Source: a virus
IMG/VR virus record: IMGVR_UViG_3300032224_001305
Coordinates: 1 to 64,000 of that record
Strand: one strand, 5' to 3'
DNA length: 64,000 nt
Shown: positions 34,654-53,681 of the stretch, piece by piece
Numbering within the stretch: position 1 is the first letter of the stretch
Layout: each line of letters begins with the position of its first letter
Notes under the pieces: model-generated
Databases searched by the model: none
Seen by the model: only the letters and a program-made list of their open reading frames with translations
Told to the model about the DNA's origin: nothing
Translations under genes and position numbers: made by a program

Positions 34654-35046
34654 TTCTAGTTTTGTTAAACTAACTGTCTCGAATCATCAACTCTCTACCA
34701 ATTGGTTGGTAGAGTGATAATCATTGCACTTTTAAAAACACCTCTCTACCTCTTAGTTTGTAAACATTACTAGTAATGTAAAACTGAGGGTAACGAAACA
34801 ACAACTCTCTACCAATCAGTTAGTAGAGTGAATTTCATTATAGATTTTTATCTGAAGAACAAACCTCTTGGTTTGCAGTCTAACTTACTATACCTCTAAT
34901 CAACTAATACTTAACATTACTAGTAATGATTACAAACTAAGAGGTTAGTAGTACTAGAAGAAAAAGTCAATAAAATTGACTCTACCAACCTGTTGGTAGA
35001 GTTTTGTTGTTTCGATAGTATCGATTTTACAAAACTAGAAATGTTA
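34648..35046. repeat. AT-rich non-coding element bounded by 18-bp perfect inverted repeats, with nested palindromes
   Basis: TAACATTTCTAGTTTTGT (34648-34665) / ACAAAACTAGAAATGTTA (35029-35046); three CTCTACCAA-N4-TT[GA]GTAGAG; two CATTACTAGTAATG. Confidence 0.9.
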
Positions 35047-35048
35047 AG

Positions 35049-36062
35049 TTAGAGAAGCTTTCGTACCTTGGTCAGCTGATTTGTCTTTGTTCCAGCAGAA
35101 GCTGTCTCAGCCGTTTGGAATTGAGAGACGACAATAACGTTCTTACCGTCGTATACCAGCTCTCCGCCTGCGGCGGTTACCGTCAGCGTGTGCATTATTT
35201 TATCGAACGAAATAATACGCAGAATCGGATAAACCTTCTTTAGATCTTCCAGTGTCCGATACAAAGTATCCGCGTCAGCAGGATTGTTGTTTACCATTCC
35301 CGCTAACGCGTTTGTAAGCTTCGCATACAACTCAGCTAGGTTGCAGTTGTTCATCTCTATGTTTATTGCCTCTATCTTGTGCAGAATAGGCAATATGTGC
35401 ATCTGGTCACCAGGTGGTAACTCAGCCTTCCACGTGATGATGTTTACCGCAAACTGCTTTCTTGCGATCTGAAGATCACCAAGAGTCTCTTCAAGCCATG
35501 ACAGCACGTTCCAGATACTTTCTTTCTGCGCGTCACTGATAGTCGCACCCGGTAGGGTAAGAGCAATAAGGCGCTTGTACTCCTCCAGCCACTTGTTCAT
35601 TCTGTAGTGCAGTTTGTCTAGCTCGTCCGCTAGGGCGGTCACATCAAAGAAACCGCGTATGACTTCCCACTCCAGACGCTCTGCTTCTACCTTGAACGCA
35701 CTGAAATCCTCGGCGTTCAGCGAGAAGTGCTGCCAGATGTAGTACGGTAGACGAACTCGCTTGGTCTTGGGTGGCGGTTCTTTGAACCACGGAGGAACCG
35801 CAGCTAAGGACGCAAACTGCGTAACCACCGCAGCGGTCTCTTCGTCCATCACGCGCATAGGCATGTAGATAACGGCGCCGTCTTTGGTCATGCGGTATCT
35901 GTACACATGGCCCTTCTCTTTTGGACTCAGTTCACTCTTGTTGTAGGGGGCATTGTCTACCGGGTCTCGGTAGATGTTCTTGTGGAACTTTCCAAGACCC
36001 GTACTGTCTCGCCACTCAATGAAAATACCAATGTCCTCAGCGTCATTACGAACACCCTGCAT
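35049..36062 (-). CDS. Hypothetical protein
   Basis: 337-aa ORF with AGGAGG RBS. Confidence 0.75.
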   Translation of the reverse strand: MQGVRNDAEDIGIFIEWRDSTGLGKFHKNIYRDPVDNAPYNKSELSPKEKGHVYRYRMTKDGAVIYMPMRVMDEETAAVVTQFASLAAVPPWFKEPPPKTKRVRLPYYIWQHFSLNAEDFSAFKVEAERLEWEVIRGFFDVTALADELDKLHYRMNKWLEEYKRLIALTLPGATISDAQKESIWNVLSWLEETLGDLQIARKQFAVNIITWKAELPPGDQMHILPILHKIEAINIEMNNCNLAELYAKLTNALAGMVNNNPADADTLYRTLEDLKKVYPILRIISFDKIMHTLTVTAAGGELVYDGKNVIVVSQFQTAETASAGTKTNQLTKVRKLL

Positions 36063-36134
36063 TTAATCCTCCTAGGTAAAGAAGAGAGACACACGTAGAC
36101 AGGCTAGGCCCGTCCACGTGTACTCTCTTCTCCT

Positions 36135-36830
36135 TTAAGCAACTGACTTCTTAACTTCAGACGTGCGCATGAACTTCTTTCCAGACATCTTCATGGCAGC
36201 TACCTCGCCCATGGTGAGGTGATTCGTCACCGCAATGCTTGAGGAGAACTGGTCCCACTCGCCTTCCACGATAGTAGCAAAGGATGGCGGAACGCGACCA
36301 GCCAGAAGTTTTCCGAAGAATGGCAGGGCCACGAGCTTGTGGTGCATCAGGATACCCACAAGCTCACTCTCCATGCCGAGCAGCTCGTACATCGCCATAT
36401 CTTCTTCGGTAGTCTCCCCGGTCACCACCGAGAAGCCGCGGTTGTGCAGCCAAGTGCTGAGGTCTACACCCAGCTCTTCCAGGTCAGCCTCTCGCTGCTC
36501 CACAGTGTAGAACGCCGTGACATGGTGCATGAACGCCTTCTGAAGCATCTGACGACTAATGTCATACTGCTCCTTGGTTCGAACAGCTCCACGCTTAGGA
36601 TTACCGCCATCTACGATGAAGTTAAGTGCGGGACCGTACGGAATACTACCGTTGGCACCGATGACCAAAGACACCTTACAGAAATCATCAGACTCGGTCG
36701 AGAAGGGGCGACCGATCCAAGCGAGCTCATCGCCAATCCTGGTTTGCACCAAGATCGTCTTGGTTCCATTGAACTCGATAGTGAAGCGGACAGGCGACGA
36801 TTCCGTCGCCAAGAAGTAAGGTGTACGCAT
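36135..36830 (-). CDS. Hypothetical protein directly downstream of E1
   Basis: 231-aa ORF, GAGG RBS, followed by a hairpin at about 36080-36131. Confidence 0.7.
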   Translation of the reverse strand: MRTPYFLATESSPVRFTIEFNGTKTILVQTRIGDELAWIGRPFSTESDDFCKVSLVIGANGSIPYGPALNFIVDGGNPKRGAVRTKEQYDISRQMLQKAFMHHVTAFYTVEQREADLEELGVDLSTWLHNRGFSVVTGETTEEDMAMYELLGMESELVGILMHHKLVALPFFGKLLAGRVPPSFATIVEGEWDQFSSSIAVTNHLTMGEVAAMKMSGKKFMRTSEVKKSVA

Positions 36831-36856
36831 TTATTTATACCTCGCGCTATATGCGC

Positions 36857-37522
36857 TTAACGTGCTTGAGGAAGCACGGTGAAATTACGAAAATCCACAG
36901 CTACCTGATGTGGATATTTCTCACTGATAATCCAGCTCACCAACGCTGAGCACATGAGACTTGCAATCCCATAAGCGCAGAAGATCGTTGAGCGAGCCGT
37001 GCACGGTTCTGTAAACGCTTCAGCGTCACTGTGTAGTGATCCCAGATAGTTTGCCACTGAGTCTTTGTCTTCCTTATCGACAAAGAACACCTTGCCAAAT
37101 CTAGAACCCATACGACCGTCGAGATAGATCTTAGTCGACGGATCGTTTAGGAAGTTGGTGAACACAAGCTGACGTGCAGCCATGCTGTCCAAGGCGGACA
37201 CAACCAACTCTGTTCCAAACGCCCCGCCTTCATAGAACTGATCGTGCGGTACAATGGTGACGCCAGTTCCTACTTCTAGGCGTTCCTTTAGAGCATCCAC
37301 TTTCTTCTTACCAAGGTCATTCAAGTAGTAACCCTGGTTAGCAATATTATGGGACTCAACGGTATCAGCATCCCAGACGTGCATTACTCCTATACCAGTT
37401 TTTGCTAGCACTTCTGCAACGTGGGAGCCGATAGAACCGACACCAACGACAGTTGTTGTCATACCTGATACCTCTTGAGGGATCAGTGTAGATTGGCGTG
37501 TGAAATCTAGCTTGACAGCCAT
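36857..37522 (-). CDS. ThiF/E1-like ubiquitin-activating enzyme
   Basis: GVGSIG, WDADTVESHNIANQ, KKKV, ALDS..AR, DGRMG, EPC (candidate catalytic Cys); ATG at 37522 overlaps the JAB 3' end. Confidence 0.92.
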   Translation of the reverse strand: MAVKLDFTRQSTLIPQEVSGMTTTVVGVGSIGSHVAEVLAKTGIGVMHVWDADTVESHNIANQGYYLNDLGKKKVDALKERLEVGTGVTIVPHDQFYEGGAFGTELVVSALDSMAARQLVFTNFLNDPSTKIYLDGRMGSRFGKVFFVDKEDKDSVANYLGSLHSDAEAFTEPCTARSTIFCAYGIASLMCSALVSWIISEKYPHQVAVDFRNFTVLPQAR

Positions 37523-38379
37523 TTGCGTGTCCAATATCCGATATTATCTCGGATCGTTTCGGGTTTCTTCTCAACGTTTATAACGGTGCTTTCCGTCTTT
37601 ACCTGTCTTTCCTCTATTTTTTTAGCCTTTGCCGGCTCCTCTATAAATCTCACCGGAGGCACGTTCCTAGTGCCCTGCCATCCCCACCAGGCAGGAAAGT
37701 CATCGTCGTCATCATGTAGTTTAGTCTTTACCGGCAGGTTGGTCTGAACTCCAGCCTGCCACGTTCTAGTGACCGGAGCAGTAAAGGACTGTTTCTGTAC
37801 GGTGACCACGTTGTGCATACGCTCAACTTTAGCCAGTGACTCTTCTATCCACTTATTAGTAACGGTGCCCTGATACAACACACCGTACGAGCAGTTGACT
37901 ACGGTATTTCTGTACACGCTGTTGTTGTTACCGTGGCTGTTGGGATCATACGTATCTAGACGCAAGTACAGATTATTGCCAGGATCTTTACCAGCTAGCG
38001 CGGCTGCAGCACCACTTTTATTAGTGATAATACTCCACATAAAGGCGCCGTTAGCCAGACGATCGATAGTAGCTTCGTCTGTGCCAGAGGGACTAGCTGT
38101 CATGTTCACGTGGCTGTGGAAGAACACACGCAGTCTAGAAGTATCAGCGCCCTGATTGATCAACTCTAGCTGCAGCAAAGACAGAGACTGGTCGTCCATC
38201 TCAGTGTACACACCAGAGCACTTTTGCTTTGGTACATAAAACTCTTGAACGACATCGTCTCTGCCAGGCAGCAGCAAGCCGAGAGCAGAGATCTCGATAT
38301 CGCATGCCTCGGTAAGACGCCACATCTGTATCCACGCCTTGGGCGTGAACAGAAGCTTCTTCGTTTGCACTACACTCAT
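37507..38379 (-). CDS. JAB/JAMM (MPN+) metalloprotease
   Basis: Catalytic E in EISALG and HSH-x7-S-x2-D motif (FHSHVNMTASPSGTD). Confidence 0.92.
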   Translation of the reverse strand: MSVVQTKKLLFTPKAWIQMWRLTEACDIEISALGLLLPGRDDVVQEFYVPKQKCSGVYTEMDDQSLSLLQLELINQGADTSRLRVFFHSHVNMTASPSGTDEATIDRLANGAFMWSIITNKSGAAAALAGKDPGNNLYLRLDTYDPNSHGNNNSVYRNTVVNCSYGVLYQGTVTNKWIEESLAKVERMHNVVTVQKQSFTAPVTRTWQAGVQTNLPVKTKLHDDDDDFPAWWGWQGTRNVPPVRFIEEPAKAKKIEERQVKTESTVINVEKKPETIRDNIGYWTRKWLSS

Positions 38380-39410
38380 GATACCGTCCTAGGTACGCAG
38401 CCAGAGTTGTTTAGGCCGCTGTTTGTTTCTAGAGATACTAGCGAGAACATATGTAGCTTTGCGCAACAAGTGGGACATGAGCCACAATGTGACACTGCCG
38501 TTTCCTGAAAGCAGTTAGCGCAGAAAATACTCTCGTGTACATGCTCACAACCCTGAGCGGCCGGAGCTACGCCAAGATCGTTGCAGTGTGGACACACGAT
38601 CCTACCCCAAGGACCTTTGGGATCCCTATCTATGAGATTGGTATACGCGCTCGCTGGATTAGCAAACAACAGACAACCGCTTAGAAGTGCCAGCGCGTTG
38701 GCCACGTTTCCATGTAGTAAAGAGTCTGAGATACGTATAGCCTCGTCACCCGTACACACACTGTTGTTGTAGTTTATGTGCGGGTGGTCGCGAAACGTCG
38801 TAACAACATCGTTACTATCTTTAGCAGTGACCTGTAGATTAGCGCCGTATCTCTGTACATCCCAGCCAAGTTTTACTAGGTACGAACCATACTTTTCGTG
38901 CGATTTGAGACCGGTACCTCGCTGAATAATACGGAATACCTTTGTGCGAAACTCTACGTTGATTCTGGGGGGTTCAGTACCACTCTGAGTAGAGACAGTA
39001 ACCGTAGGCACATCAACGGTACTGAGTAGCTCTGAGGCGTTGTCATAGTCAAACGTATCGCACAGATCTTTGTAGCTCTCAAACAGCGCTTTATTTTTAA
39101 TGATATACTGAATAGCTTTTATAGTGCTTTGGTGACGGTCATTAAGCTCATCAGACTTGCGTTCGGCGTAGTAAACTTCGTCAGCAAGTGCTTGTTCCTT
39201 TGTTGTGATTAGTCGAAGCTTTTCTTTAAGCTTTTCCTTCTCTTCTTTTATAGCGTCTATAAACGCCTGCTTCTTCTCTTTAACCTCCTTGAGTTCGGCG
39301 TCAGCAGTGTCGACAAGCTTCTTAGTCTGCTCCGCCTCTACCCGTTTTGACTCTATGGTACTGTCATCTACTTTGAAACAGCCCATCAAACGCGTTTTCA
39401 GTTCTGACAT
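38376..39410 (-). CDS. Prokaryotic E2-like protein with N-terminal coiled coil and C-terminal Cys/His-rich Zn-binding region
   Basis: HPHINYNNSVCTG (E2 HPN/HPH...C active-site pattern), NP.SAY; tail CPHC..CEH.H..CANC..CGSCPTCC..H. Confidence 0.78.
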   Translation of the reverse strand: MSELKTRLMGCFKVDDSTIESKRVEAEQTKKLVDTADAELKEVKEKKQAFIDAIKEEKEKLKEKLRLITTKEQALADEVYYAERKSDELNDRHQSTIKAIQYIIKNKALFESYKDLCDTFDYDNASELLSTVDVPTVTVSTQSGTEPPRINVEFRTKVFRIIQRGTGLKSHEKYGSYLVKLGWDVQRYGANLQVTAKDSNDVVTTFRDHPHINYNNSVCTGDEAIRISDSLLHGNVANALALLSGCLLFANPASAYTNLIDRDPKGPWGRIVCPHCNDLGVAPAAQGCEHVHESIFCANCFQETAVSHCGSCPTCCAKLHMFSLVSLETNSGLNNSGCVPRTVS

Positions 39411-39421
39411 TGCTGACCCCT

Positions 39422-39472
39422 AAAAACGCGAGAGGGCACCACATACTAGATGTATGCAGTGCCCCCTCACGC
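39422..39472 (-). terminator. Intrinsic terminator/attenuator between Ubl and E2 genes
   Basis: On - strand GCGTGAGGGGGCACTGCATAC ... GTATGTGGTGCCCTCTCGCG followed by a T run. Confidence 0.65.
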
Positions 39473-39498
39473 AGCCATAGACCTACGCCGCTACCAAA

Positions 39499-39909
39499 TT
39501 AGCCAGCGTTGACGTTGACCTGCACCATGATGGTGTGATTGCCTGCGGGCACCGGGTCGTTAGCCGACAGCGGGACGAGCTGGCTGTCACGAACGTAAGC
39601 ATAGCTAGCGGTGCTGGTATTCCAGCCAGCCGAAGCCACGATGTCCTTGATAGGCGTACCAGGGACGAAGTTCACCGGAACCGCGTCCTTACCCAAGCTA
39701 CCCTTGAGAAGGACGGTGTTACCGCCCTGAGCCTCAGCCAGCTTCTCGTTGTACGCCGCCTTGGCGCGCGTCATCTTAGCCGCAGCGGCAGTCAACTCAT
39801 CCATGTTCTCGGTCGAGAACTCTTCTTCGAATGCCGCCTTGGCATCTTCGTACGCGTTGGTGGCTTCGTCCAGAATGCGCTGCAGATCATCAATCGAGAG
39901 TGCGCCCAT
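39499..39909 (-). CDS. Ubiquitin-like protein (N-terminal helical hairpin plus C-terminal beta-grasp ending in Gly)
   Basis: VPVNFVPGTPIKDIVASAG...VRD..V...DPVPAG..TIMVQVNVNAG-stop resembles ThiS/MoaD/Ubl; first gene of the Ubl-E2-JAB-E1 run; GGAG RBS. Confidence 0.78.
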   Translation of the reverse strand: MGALSIDDLQRILDEATNAYEDAKAAFEEEFSTENMDELTAAAAKMTRAKAAYNEKLAEAQGGNTVLLKGSLGKDAVPVNFVPGTPIKDIVASAGWNTSTASYAYVRDSQLVPLSANDPVPAGNHTIMVQVNVNAG

Positions 39910-40224
39910 GTTATTTCTCCATGAAAAGCCTAACGGCTTTTGTTGTCCTAGCTTTGCTTGTTGTTGCGATAGTTACAGATTTGTAAGTCTTTCCGCCGCA
40001 TTCGGACGTAAGACGTATAGCCCACGGCAATCTTCCGTTGTCGGGTGCTTCTGCGTCTTCTGTCTGCAGATGAGCTACAAACAAAAGAGTCGTTACATTG
40101 CCTGATTGAACCGGTTCTCGGCTGTAAGATACAGTCCAGCCTTGGCTCATTGCGTCCTTACTACTAGCTACCACCCGTAGTAGGTACAAGAGCATATAAC
40201 ATTATTTTTATTTGTTTTGCAGAC

Positions 40225-40428
40225 TTAGTCTACGGCGGTCACATCATCCGCGGCGTCAACGGTGACGGTGACATCCGTCGCTACCGAGACTTCTCCAGCC
40301 AGCGGAGCTGCGTCAGCATCTACAGCGTCTACTACATCGACATCTGCATTACCAGCGTCAACGTCAGCCGTAGACTTGCTGCAGCCTGCGAAAACAATTA
40401 CTAGTGATAAACAAGCTAAAACTTTCAT
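40225..40428 (-). CDS. Small acidic lipoprotein
   Basis: MKVLACLSLVIVFAG-C lipobox; Asp/Ala/Val-rich mature part. Confidence 0.7.
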   Translation of the reverse strand: MKVLACLSLVIVFAGCSKSTADVDAGNADVDVVDAVDADAAPLAGEVSVATDVTVTVDAADDVTAVD

Positions 40429-40446
40429 CTAAACTCCCAATCAGGG

Positions 40447-40770
<324 letters not shown>

Positions 40771-41466
40771 TTATATTTTCTCCTTGTCTTGAAATATATC
40801 TCTGAATACTTTTGTGATGTTGCCTCTACTTACTGGCTCTGGCTGTTTCCTGCCCGTAGCCATTATGGACACATCTTTCTTTGACACTTTCTTAACTACA
40901 CCAAATCGGTGCCCACCGATCTTAGAATAGAACTGGACCATATCACCGGCCCTAATAGCGTCAATAGAGACTTCTTCGTGAAAGAGAGGTGAACTCATAT
41001 TTTTCTCACACCTCATAACTTTAGCTGCATAATTTTTAGCGCGACGTAACTTTGGACCCGCTCCCTTGGCCGCAGCAGTTCCAGCGTTGTAACCCATCAG
41101 GGTATGTCGGATGGTACATGTGGTATCTTTACCGCATGCTCCCCGCGCAAGTCTATACCACGCATTAGTTTTGCCTAGTAAAGACGCTGTCCTACTAAGG
41201 GCAACCGGGACCTTCTTCAAAGACGCACAGGGTACTTTCTTTGACGGGAGTACTTGAGTAACCCCGCACTCTCCGCTGGAACCTATTTGACTAGCGTCCC
41301 ATTTGGACTCTACGTGTGCCACGCATATAAGTCTTTCTACAGGTACGTCAGATTCTTTGGCGGTGTTAACTAGAGCAGCTTCGTTCTCGCAAATTACTTG
41401 TACTTCCTTACTATTCAGTACGCCTGGATTTGCTGAGAGTACTGCGCAAAGTGCTAGATTTATCAA
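40771..41466 (-). CDS. Lytic transglycosylase (SLT) with C-terminal SH3/KOW-like domain
   Basis: VAHVESKWD (catalytic E), GECGVTQV, YNAG, YAAKV. Confidence 0.8.
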   Translation of the reverse strand: MINLALCAVLSANPGVLNSKEVQVICENEAALVNTAKESDVPVERLICVAHVESKWDASQIGSSGECGVTQVLPSKKVPCASLKKVPVALSRTASLLGKTNAWYRLARGACGKDTTCTIRHTLMGYNAGTAAAKGAGPKLRRAKNYAAKVMRCEKNMSSPLFHEEVSIDAIRAGDMVQFYSKIGGHRFGVVKKVSKKDVSIMATGRKQPEPVSRGNITKVFRDIFQDKEKI

Positions 41467-42005
41467 GGTGCCTCATCTAGTTTAGCCACCTCAGGACTTA
41501 ACCTAATCCTATCTTTAGTTAGTTGGTCGGATAGATCAGTAAAGTCCAAAGATCGCTTGAGAATCAGCTGCGCCCAAGATGCAGGTACATCTTCCCCAAA
41601 GTAGACTATTGTGCATTCCTTTCCAGCATCTCTTAGAATCTTTTGGGTGTTAGACGCAGCCTCGATGTTTGTTACAAGGGCTATCTCGCTGGCATCATTA
41701 GCCATAGCGTAAGCCAACATTTCTGGTAAGTAACTATCCTTAGACTCCCTAGTGGGTGAGTATTGTATAACCACATAACCGGATTGTTCCAATCTCTTTA
41801 TAAAATTTTGCTGTGGTTTATTTGCGTCTATGGCTGTTGTAAAACCGATGGCAGACACAGAGTCGGAAGCCTCTCCATCTAGATCTAGTAAGTATTTTAT
41901 CTCGCCAAGTAGTTCCTTGTAGTCTATTAGCAAGTCTAAGCGTCTACTGGTGAAGTACAGCTGAGTTAAATCAAACAGGATAAATACTTTGTTGCTTTGG
42001 GTCAT
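41463..42005 (-). CDS. NYN/LabA (PIN-fold)-like protein, degenerate
   Basis: VFILFD..QLYF, IDYKELL, FIKRLEQSGY.V, IALVT, L.DAGK...IV, DFTDL. Confidence 0.6.
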   Translation of the reverse strand: MTQSNKVFILFDLTQLYFTSRRLDLLIDYKELLGEIKYLLDLDGEASDSVSAIGFTTAIDANKPQQNFIKRLEQSGYVVIQYSPTRESKDSYLPEMLAYAMANDASEIALVTNIEAASNTQKILRDAGKECTIVYFGEDVPASWAQLILKRSLDFTDLSDQLTKDRIRLSPEVAKLDEAP

Positions 42006-42146
42006 TTTATTACCTATCAATATTATTGAGCGCATATATTAGCGCGAGCCCCTTGTACAGTACCGAACCTATAGTGTCAACGCGACATACCTTCGCAAGG
42101 GGTCACCAAGTATAGACCCAAAACACCTGTAGCTGTGTATGCTGGC

Positions 42147-53144: not shown

Positions 53145-53564
53145 CTACGCCTCGGCCATAGGTGCCATAATCGCGCCCTCGATATCCTTATCGAAATACG
53201 TAGAGTCGGAGTCAACCAGTTCGATGCTACTAAGCTCTTTATCGTGGATGATAAGTGTCAGAGGACCCATCGTGGCATATTCCTCTATCAACTTGGCGGC
53301 CTTTTCTTTACCTACGATGCCCTCTAGAAGTAAATCGAGGAAAGCGACTATGCGATTTACAAACTCGTCGTGTAGGCCCGTCAGACGTATGTTAAACCGC
53401 AGCTCGAAATAGAACGCTGGGCACTTACGTAGAACTTCGTACATACCTTTTAGCTGCTTGCGTTCATCTGCACAATCGGGACAGTCTCCGCATCCTACAC
53501 ACGTCAGAAACAGCATAGTCGCTATCCATTCGCTGACTTCTTCCAATGAAAGCTCATTACCCAT
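53145..53564 (-). CDS. Hypothetical protein with CxxCxxCxxC
   Basis: MGNELSLEEV...CVGCGDCPDC; GAGG upstream. Confidence 0.55.
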   Translation of the reverse strand: MGNELSLEEVSEWIATMLFLTCVGCGDCPDCADERKQLKGMYEVLRKCPAFYFELRFNIRLTGLHDEFVNRIVAFLDLLLEGIVGKEKAAKLIEEYATMGPLTLIIHDKELSSIELVDSDSTYFDKDIEGAIMAPMAEA

Positions 53565-53681
53565 AATCAACCTCGCTGGCGCAAGAGCGCCATCTATTTG
53601 GCAAACGGCGCTCCTGCACCAGCGGTAACTATGCCACATAGTAGTCCATGCCCACTACGCTATATTTATTACTCGTGGATA

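Follow-up and report, generated by a model that had tools for sequence, protein, structure and literature searches.

A predicted phage-encoded ubiquitin-like conjugation cassette whose E2 protein carries a coiled coil and a conserved Cys/His-rich tail

Bacterial ubiquitin-like conjugation has so far been characterised as host defence, in the Bil and CBASS Cap2 systems, both without an E3. BilABCD operons of Types I and II (PMC10557695, PMC11601596, PMC11601603) encode a ubiquitin-like modifier (Ubl), an E2, a JAB peptidase and an E1, in that order; no predicted E3 is encoded in them (PMC11601596), and the E2 is thought to choose targets itself (PMC11601596, PMC10557695). The E1 of these operons, BilD, has the architecture IAD-AAD-CYS, while the E2, BilB, has a CEHH motif with a His after the catalytic Cys (PMC10557695). 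Comparative genomics and work on Caldiarchaeum have revealed operons in which the RING is a protein of its own (PMC3417536, PMC3082918, PMC5654768, PMC7159879), and a tri-ligase Ubl system has also been described (PMC7159879). Here we analyse a minus-strand gene block with the four Bil functions in Bil order, located in a stretch of 64,000 nucleotides (hereafter the window) that makes up positions 1 to 64,000 of IMG/VR virus record IMGVR_UViG_3300032224_001305. The record has 101,375 bases and is estimated to be 56% complete; it comes from a large uncultured phage and codes for a terminase, a head protease and a sheath-like protein. The second gene of the block encodes P0001, a 344-residue protein composed of a coiled coil, an E2-like core and a Cys/His-rich tail. 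We read P0001 as the E2 of a phage-encoded ubiquitin-like conjugation cassette, with its zinc tail acting as an E3-like element in cis, and give this reading as a whole a probability of about 0.5. In our judgement the cassette itself is a genuine and novel form of the ubiquitin-like conjugation systems of prokaryotes and phages; the domain layout of P0001, its conservation and the operon are directly shown, and the E2 fold and the dimer are predicted by models.

The genes for the Ubl, E2, JAB peptidase and E1 lie in one operon, as they do in Bil systems, and like BilABCD the cassette has no separate E3. P0001 and BilB both lack the canonical C-terminal helices of E2 enzymes (PMC10557695), BilB dimerises and a dimer is predicted for P0001, and in some Type II Bil Ubls a coiled coil precedes the single beta-grasp domain, comparable to the N-terminal helical part of the phage Ubl. 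In contrast to BilABCD, which sits in host defence islands, the cassette described here is phage-encoded; its E1 is a 225-residue single ThiF domain rather than an IAD-AAD-CYS protein, and Gly is already the last residue of its Ubl, unlike E. aridi BilA, which has to be trimmed. P0001 differs from BilB in having HPH before the catalytic Cys instead of CEHH, and in carrying a coiled-coil rod and a zinc tail. As both the E2 motif and the E1 architecture differ, we rejected P0001 as a BilB orthologue; the sequence matches of P0001 and those of the E1 included no solved Bil chain. The earlier note on this DNA, made from the sequence alone, had called a built-in adaptor unusual for minimal prokaryotic systems, and we agree that it would be, because Bil operons of the same gene order encode no predicted E3 (PMC11601596).

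P0001 is encoded at 38376..39410 on the minus strand (stop codon included), and the plus-strand frame of this region is riddled with stops. Its homologues begin with MSELK or MQDLK, matching the P0001 start at 39410, so that the 344-residue start is supported by a shared N-terminus. A model built with AlphaFold2 from a 25-sequence alignment had a mean predicted local distance difference test score (pLDDT) of 80, compared to 48 for a single-sequence run. It divides the protein into a long helix (residues 1-120; 39051..39410, -), a UBC-fold E2 core (residues 121-264; 38619..39050, -) and the Cys/His-rich tail (residues 265-344; 38379..38618, -). The three-part architecture put forward in the earlier note is thus real: the N-terminal coiled coil of about 100 residues that it had proposed corresponds to a single modelled helix over residues 16-119, with pLDDT up to 95, and its central E2-like core is borne out by the fold model and by an HPH-x7-C219 motif.

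In the predicted homodimer the helices of two chains run antiparallel as a coiled coil, with residue 61 at its centre. Two copies of P0001 were predicted together with an ipSAE of 0.56 (0.00 for the best control), a mark that 20 out of 30 proteins known as pairs from solved structures attain, as does one out of 23 solved as single chains, subject to the caveat that long helices pair easily. The runs share at least 90% of contacts and the pLDDT of the partner is at least 76. This prediction supports a homodimer assembled through the coiled coil, in which the contacts are antiparallel (residue 40 with 82, 61 with 61) and the E2-zinc heads would therefore lie at opposite ends of the rod. Residues 1-16 of one chain contact the E2 core of the other (129-141, 236-240) in the model, and the tail lies outside the interface. 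A wide VIA-align search was dominated by coiled-coil matches to residues 1-120 and taught us nothing about the core or the tail.

Within the E2 part, AlphaFold2 places an alpha/beta core over residues 122-262 with pLDDT of 80-89, and the best-probability Foldseek matches to it are E2 enzymes (probability up to 0.87), although the lowest E-values belonged to a pair of Ccp1 chains and E 0.001 was not attained by any match. VIA-align comparisons with UbcH8, UBE2S and UbcH7 gave Z of 5.0-6.8 and a root-mean-square deviation of 4-6 Å over 110-131 aligned residues (approximately 103-270 of the model); as these Z values are moderate, we regard the E2 fold match as consistent, not strong. The active-site motif HPHINYNNSVC219 (38754..38786, -) aligns with HPNINSNGSIC85 of UbcH5c, with the Asn of the HPN-type motif replaced by His, and LLFANPASAY aligns with the LLCDPNPDDP region of the same enzyme. 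None of H209, P210, H211, C219 and N251 varies among the 25 family sequences, which are 18-55% identical to P0001, and P0001 and its nearest relatives have the His-to-Cys spacing of UbcH5c. The Pfam model UQ_con (PF00179) did not match P0001, and gave the distant family member P0017 a score (E 0.0037) that fell short of the cut-off. The core ends at about residue 264, after the crossover helix, without the two C-terminal helices of canonical E2s. Past C219 the family consensus reads LGD-x4-I-x2-AL-x2-G, and the conserved E/H/H of the BilB CEHH motif is absent. Among the structural neighbours of the core in the Atlas are Prok-E2_B, Prok-E2_D and E2-CBASS clusters, which serve as leads only. With fold model, motif alignment and invariant residues in agreement, the assignment of the core as a UBC-fold E2 holds, the fold being a predicted one.

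A separate observation concerns viral proteins in BFVD, where uncharacterised phage proteins of 420-590 residues and one of 1146 residues outranked the named viral E2s as matches to the P0001 model. The top neighbours had a Foldseek probability of 1.00 and E-values between 2.6e-4 and 3.6e-3.

The tail holds ten Cys and five His in residues 265-344. Given a Cys content of 0.96% in the long open reading frames (ORFs) of the window, the binomial probability of such enrichment is ~2e-9, and no other window ORF of at least 150 residues has eight Cys in any 72-residue stretch; a chance origin of the Cys/His pattern was rejected on these grounds. The second most Cys-rich ORF of the window is a 164-residue one at 53148-53639 (-), with no more than seven Cys per 72 residues. 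The tail ligands follow the string CPHC-x11-CEHVH-x4-CANC-x7-HCGSCPTCC-x3-H, to which a conserved Cys338 in a GLNNSGC motif is to be added. This is the string given in the earlier note except for its first spacer, which is of 11 residues and not 10. Twelve ligand positions are conserved (C273, C276, C288, H290, C297, C300, C309, C312, C315, C316, H320 and C338), position 290 being His or Cys in relatives. The note's estimate of enough ligands for two to three zinc ions agrees with this count; twelve conserved ligands suffice for three, and we infer from the residues conserved that the tail probably binds three zinc ions. Members of the phage-like subgroup follow C-x2-C-x(6-11)-C-x-[CH]-x(2-13)-C-x2-C-x(7-10)-C-x2-C-x2-CC-x3-H-x(16-17)-C.

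Ligand positions of the tail are invariant or nearly so across the family, and the tail is the best conserved of the three regions (identity is 42-71% there, 29-65% in the core and 13-40% in the coiled coil). AlphaFold2 is confident over residues 300-340 of the tail, with pLDDT of 81-90. Lack of conservation in homologues had been named in advance as a reason for giving up the adaptor idea, and this objection fails, because the tail is found in all full-length members and exceeds the rest of the protein in conservation.

The E2 family is rare. A search of 1.84 billion representative proteins, with hit length unlimited and a threshold of E < 1e-3, returned 20 matches, and the Cys-rich tail was present in every full-length one (truncated entries excepted); no tail-less version of this E2 family was therefore found. 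P0001 itself is also present on a 158-kb contig. A profile search added nothing further, no relatives of P0001 were found in IMG/VR or in the GTDB species genomes, and tblastn found none in GenBank phages or PLSDB plasmids. Phages searched by megablast with the 7-kb region of the operon (35000-42000) likewise yielded no relatives, and a search of the 101-kb record gave no further member of the E2 family. A distant branch of the family (P0017-P0023 and P0027) has the same HPH-Cys core, a YNPxSxY motif and a Trp ahead of the first CxxC; its tail is an array of six to eight CxxC knuckles, and the CC-x3-H...GC end is lost in most of the sequences. Two homologues with the E2-zinc-tail layout, P0005 and P0006 (38% identical to each other), and the Ubl homologue P0031 are all recorded on contigs of 8442 bases, and one phage contig may carry two paralogous E2s.

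On the minus strand the genes of the cassette run in the order Ubl, hairpin, E2, JAB peptidase and ThiF-type E1, followed by genes for proteins of 231 and 337 residues. The Ubl candidate (39499..39909, -; 136 residues) has a helical N-terminal region of ~60 residues, joined by a QGGN linker to a C-terminal half that resembles ThiS/MoaD. The C-terminus is NVNAG, with nothing past the Gly, in each of the five sequences known (the window protein and four homologues). Three of the four Ubl homologues lie on contigs of 2416, 2398 and 8442 bases, which are the sizes of the contigs with E2 homologues P0003, P0004 and P0005. The QGGN sequence (Ubl residues 61-64; 39718-39729, -), at the junction of the helical and beta-grasp-like parts, is invariant in all five Ubl homologues; its internal Gly-Gly could be a cleavage site for the JAB peptidase, or could be a mere linker. 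Between the Ubl and E2 genes a pattern scan found a terminator-like or attenuator-like hairpin (39427..39471, -) with 20 pairs, 11 of them G-C, followed by TTTTT. This could be a partial terminator giving an excess of modifier over enzymes.

The JAB/JAMM peptidase (37507..38379, -; 290 residues) matched Prok-JAB with E 1.1e-4 and has an intact H88-x-H-x7-S-x2-D101 motif; its start overlaps the stop codon of P0001 by 4 bases, and the E2-to-JAB adjacency is seen again on JGI metagenome contig L002. The minimal E1-like adenylating enzyme (36857..37534, -; 225 residues) consists of a single ThiF domain (E 1.6e-17) with GVGSIG at residue 31 and Cys at positions 178, 186 and 195. It is nearest in sequence to MccB, PaaA and TcdA, and in PADLOC it matched the E1 part of Cap2 models and nothing else. 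ThiF/MoeB enzymes have D-x-D-x-V-x2-SNL-x-RQ in the region that corresponds to E1 residues 55-67, which here read DADTVESHNIANQ, with the Arg of the motif seemingly swapped for Ala. None of P0001, the Ubl and the JAB protein was assigned a family by PHROGs, PADLOC or NCBIfam. Among solved structures nothing matched the JAB peptidase at E <= 1 or the Ubl at E <= 10, and IMG/VR searches found no relatives of the JAB protein or of the E1.

Prokaryotic operons that combine E1, E2, RING, JAB and Ubl genes were reportedly catalogued by Burroughs, Iyer and Aravind in 2011. Such RING operons and the phage cassette are alike in being mobile and complete Ubl systems with an E3-type zinc module and a JAB peptidase, and in having an E2 with a eukaryote-like motif before the catalytic Cys. 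In the RING operons, however, the RING is a separate small protein, whereas here the zinc module is within the E2 chain and gives no match to RING models. The same layout of a bacterial E2 with a Cys-rich C-terminal domain is represented in Pfam by E2-Crich (PF20272, 'cysteine-rich domain C-terminal to E2') and by E2-ntca (PF20298), and an Atlas cluster with these two domains is a structural neighbour of P0001 over residues 134-340, at a template modelling (TM) score of 0.38 that makes it a lead only. Members of that cluster, unlike P0001, are of 263 residues, come from Pseudomonadota and have no coiled coil noted, and the PF20272 model does not match P0001. A literature search on E2-RING fusions and E2-Crich yielded nothing relevant.

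The predicted quaternary structure recalls TRIM ligases, which are antiparallel coiled-coil dimers with catalytic zinc-bearing heads at both ends; this is an analogy only, as homology to the P0001 coiled coil is not detectable, and TRIMs have a RING but no E2. The idea of E2 and E3-like parts in one chain has a precedent in the hybrids UBE2O (PMC12109548) and BIRC6, although UBE2O has no zinc module like that of P0001. In the literature searched we came across no phage E2 that combines a coiled coil with a conserved tail for three zinc ions; this search did not extend to the 2011 paper by Burroughs and colleagues, which might list a fused form.

We suggest the following course of the reaction. 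The minimal ThiF-type E1 would adenylate the free C-terminal Gly136 of the Ubl, which would then be passed to a thioester on Cys219 of the E2 core, within its eukaryote-like HPH-x7-C motif, and transferred by the E2 to a target lysine. The JAB peptidase would undo the tagging; it is probably a deconjugase and not a maturase, because the Ubl already ends in Gly. The N-terminal helix, over ~105 residues, would pair antiparallel with that of a second copy and so place one catalytic head at each end of the rod. In each head the two C-terminal helices of ordinary E2s would be swapped for an obligatory module of ~75 residues, probably with three zinc ions, and this module could act in cis as an E3-like element, holding the target, or the charged Ubl in a reactive pose, so that a separate E3 would be unneeded. 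Zinc binding, thioester chemistry, the E3-like role and the targets are all inferred; the E3-like role of the zinc module is plausible, and taken alone we allow it something approaching an even chance. A more ambitious version would make P0001 a phage single-chain E2-E3 ligase, a TRIM-like rod with a eukaryote-like E2 site and a RING- or RBR-related (RING-between-RING) three-zinc module at each end, tagging host or phage proteins with the phage's own Ubl; we consider this rather unlikely.

A single-sequence search of the PDB with P0001 gave 33 weak matches, most of them to RING E3s (TRIM21, RING1B, RNF4, BRE1 and RNF168). These phmmer matches, with E-values of 0.026-0.2 and ligands 1-8 in register, were the best obtained for the tail, yet were non-significant. 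In a Pfam scan of the tail the sole match under E 0.1 was zf-RING_6, with E 0.049 and a score of 13.9 bits where the cut-off is 35, and DZR followed at E 2.1. RING domains follow the pattern C-x2-C-x(9-39)-C-x(1-3)-H-x(2-3)-C-x2-C-x(4-48)-C-x2-C and are cross-braced. Ligands 1-8 of the tail come in RING order, with ligand 4 being His or Cys like in RING variants, but the tail has neither the RING eight-ligand spacing nor a match to the RING family models. The RING or B-box identity suggested in the earlier note is therefore not established, since the RING matches are weak, the spacing of ligands 4 and 5 is off and the family profile prefers another protein.

A number of observations tell against the reading of the tail as an E3-like element. 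Ligands 4 and 5 are separated by 2-13 residues across the family, by six in P0001 and by two in P0016 alone, compared to 2-3 in RINGs. zf-C3HC4, zf-RING_2, zf_RING-like, zf-AN1 and IBR gave no match to the tail at E <= 10; E2-Crich (PF20272) had no match at this threshold in this genome and was absent from the Pfam scans of P0001 and of the tail. The best solved match of the family profile was YfgJ, a tandem zinc-ribbon protein, with E 0.004, and RING1B and TRIM21 came behind it at ~0.02. An Atlas model of the tail (pLDDT 0.63) was nearest to IBR, DZR, Zn_ribbon_6 and Trm112p at TM of 0.37-0.43, values that provide leads only, and an Atlas feature search with the tail gave no usable named match. 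AlphaFold2 confidence drops to pLDDT of only 51-70 over residues 273-300. Finally, the tail could be purely structural, because it occupies the place of canonical E2 helices 3 and 4. Overall, we give sequential ribbons or an IBR-like fold a chance only slightly short of even, and regard a RING-like cross-brace as a strong contender at somewhat lower odds.

The possibility of a structural tail deserves the most attention among the alternatives, even though we think it on balance unlikely. In such a case the zinc tail would replace the missing helices, stabilise the truncated core or form an E1-binding surface, and the choice of targets would fall to the coiled coil, the N-terminus, or the 231-residue or 337-residue proteins. 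The end of the core at about residue 264, without helices 3 and 4, fits this; BilB also lacks these helices, and a structural zinc is central to its E1 contact (PMC10557695). A tail this highly conserved likewise suits an enzyme-enzyme interface better than a fast-evolving binder of targets, and no RING family model matches it. However, some 75 residues with 12 ligands are large for a cap, other minimal bacterial E2s do without any such module (the Prok-E2_B, Prok-E2_D and E2-CBASS clusters are of 146-175 residues), and the best single-sequence matches of the tail are RING fingers.

Two further readings are much less probable. An IBR/Rcat-like tail with sequential zinc sites and a spare reactive Cys (e.g. 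C315 or C316) could relay the Ubl from Cys219 to a tail Cys and on to the target in the manner of RBR ligases. The variable spacing of ligands 4 and 5 suits sequential sites, the CC pair is invariant in all full-length members and two RBR/IBR clusters are among the Atlas neighbours of the tail (TM 0.37), but every TM value is below 0.5 and comes from the low-confidence Atlas model, Pfam IBR gives no match, and three zinc ions can use up all twelve ligands, leaving no free Cys; we judge such a relay improbable. Even less credible to us is P0001 as a pseudo-E2 scaffold, similar to ubiquitin E2 variants (UEVs), with zinc fingers that bind nucleic acid or another ligand, and with the E1, JAB and Ubl proteins engaged in a different chemistry such as sulfur transfer or peptide modification. 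Zinc ribbons commonly bind nucleic acids, UQ_con does not match P0001, and MccB, PaaA and TcdA are not protein-conjugation E1s. Against this stand the invariance of H209, P210, H211 and C219 over 25 such divergent sequences, the UbcH5c-like His-to-Cys spacing in P0001 and its closest relatives, and a gene order that is that of Bil, a group of proven conjugation systems (PMC10557695).

In contrast to the host defence systems known so far, then, the full kit is here in a phage. The cassette is useful for its obligatory E2 zinc module, which is better conserved than the catalytic core, for the eukaryotic-looking motif before the Cys and for its TRIM-like predicted quaternary structure. Should the tail be an E3, the cassette would offer a minimal and tractable model for the joining of E2 and E3 functions, would bear on the origin of RING-type or RBR-type partners of E2s, and would mean that a phage uses protein tagging for its own ends. 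Were P0001 to work as E2 and E3 in one chain, such a fusion would exist naturally outside eukaryotes, with Bil-type chemistry used offensively, e.g. in disarming host defences. Even with a merely structural tail, P0001 would represent a new E2 family all the same.

Twenty-six bases downstream of the E1 gene lies the gene for the uncharacterised 231-residue protein (36135..36830, -), perhaps a partner within the operon, e.g. as target or as adaptor. The uncharacterised 337-residue protein (35049..36062, -) is encoded after a terminator-like hairpin (36089-36123, pattern scan), and its membership of the system is uncertain; neither protein was assigned a family in family-library scans. Immediately upstream of the cassette, the region 40225-40770 (-) holds a 67-residue lipoprotein-like ORF, with a signal peptide and a Cys, and a 107-residue ORF composed almost entirely of Asp and Glu. 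The same minus-strand block continues through 40771-42035 (-) with a weak SLT-like lytic transglycosylase (E 0.002) and an NYN-domain protein (E 7e-4).

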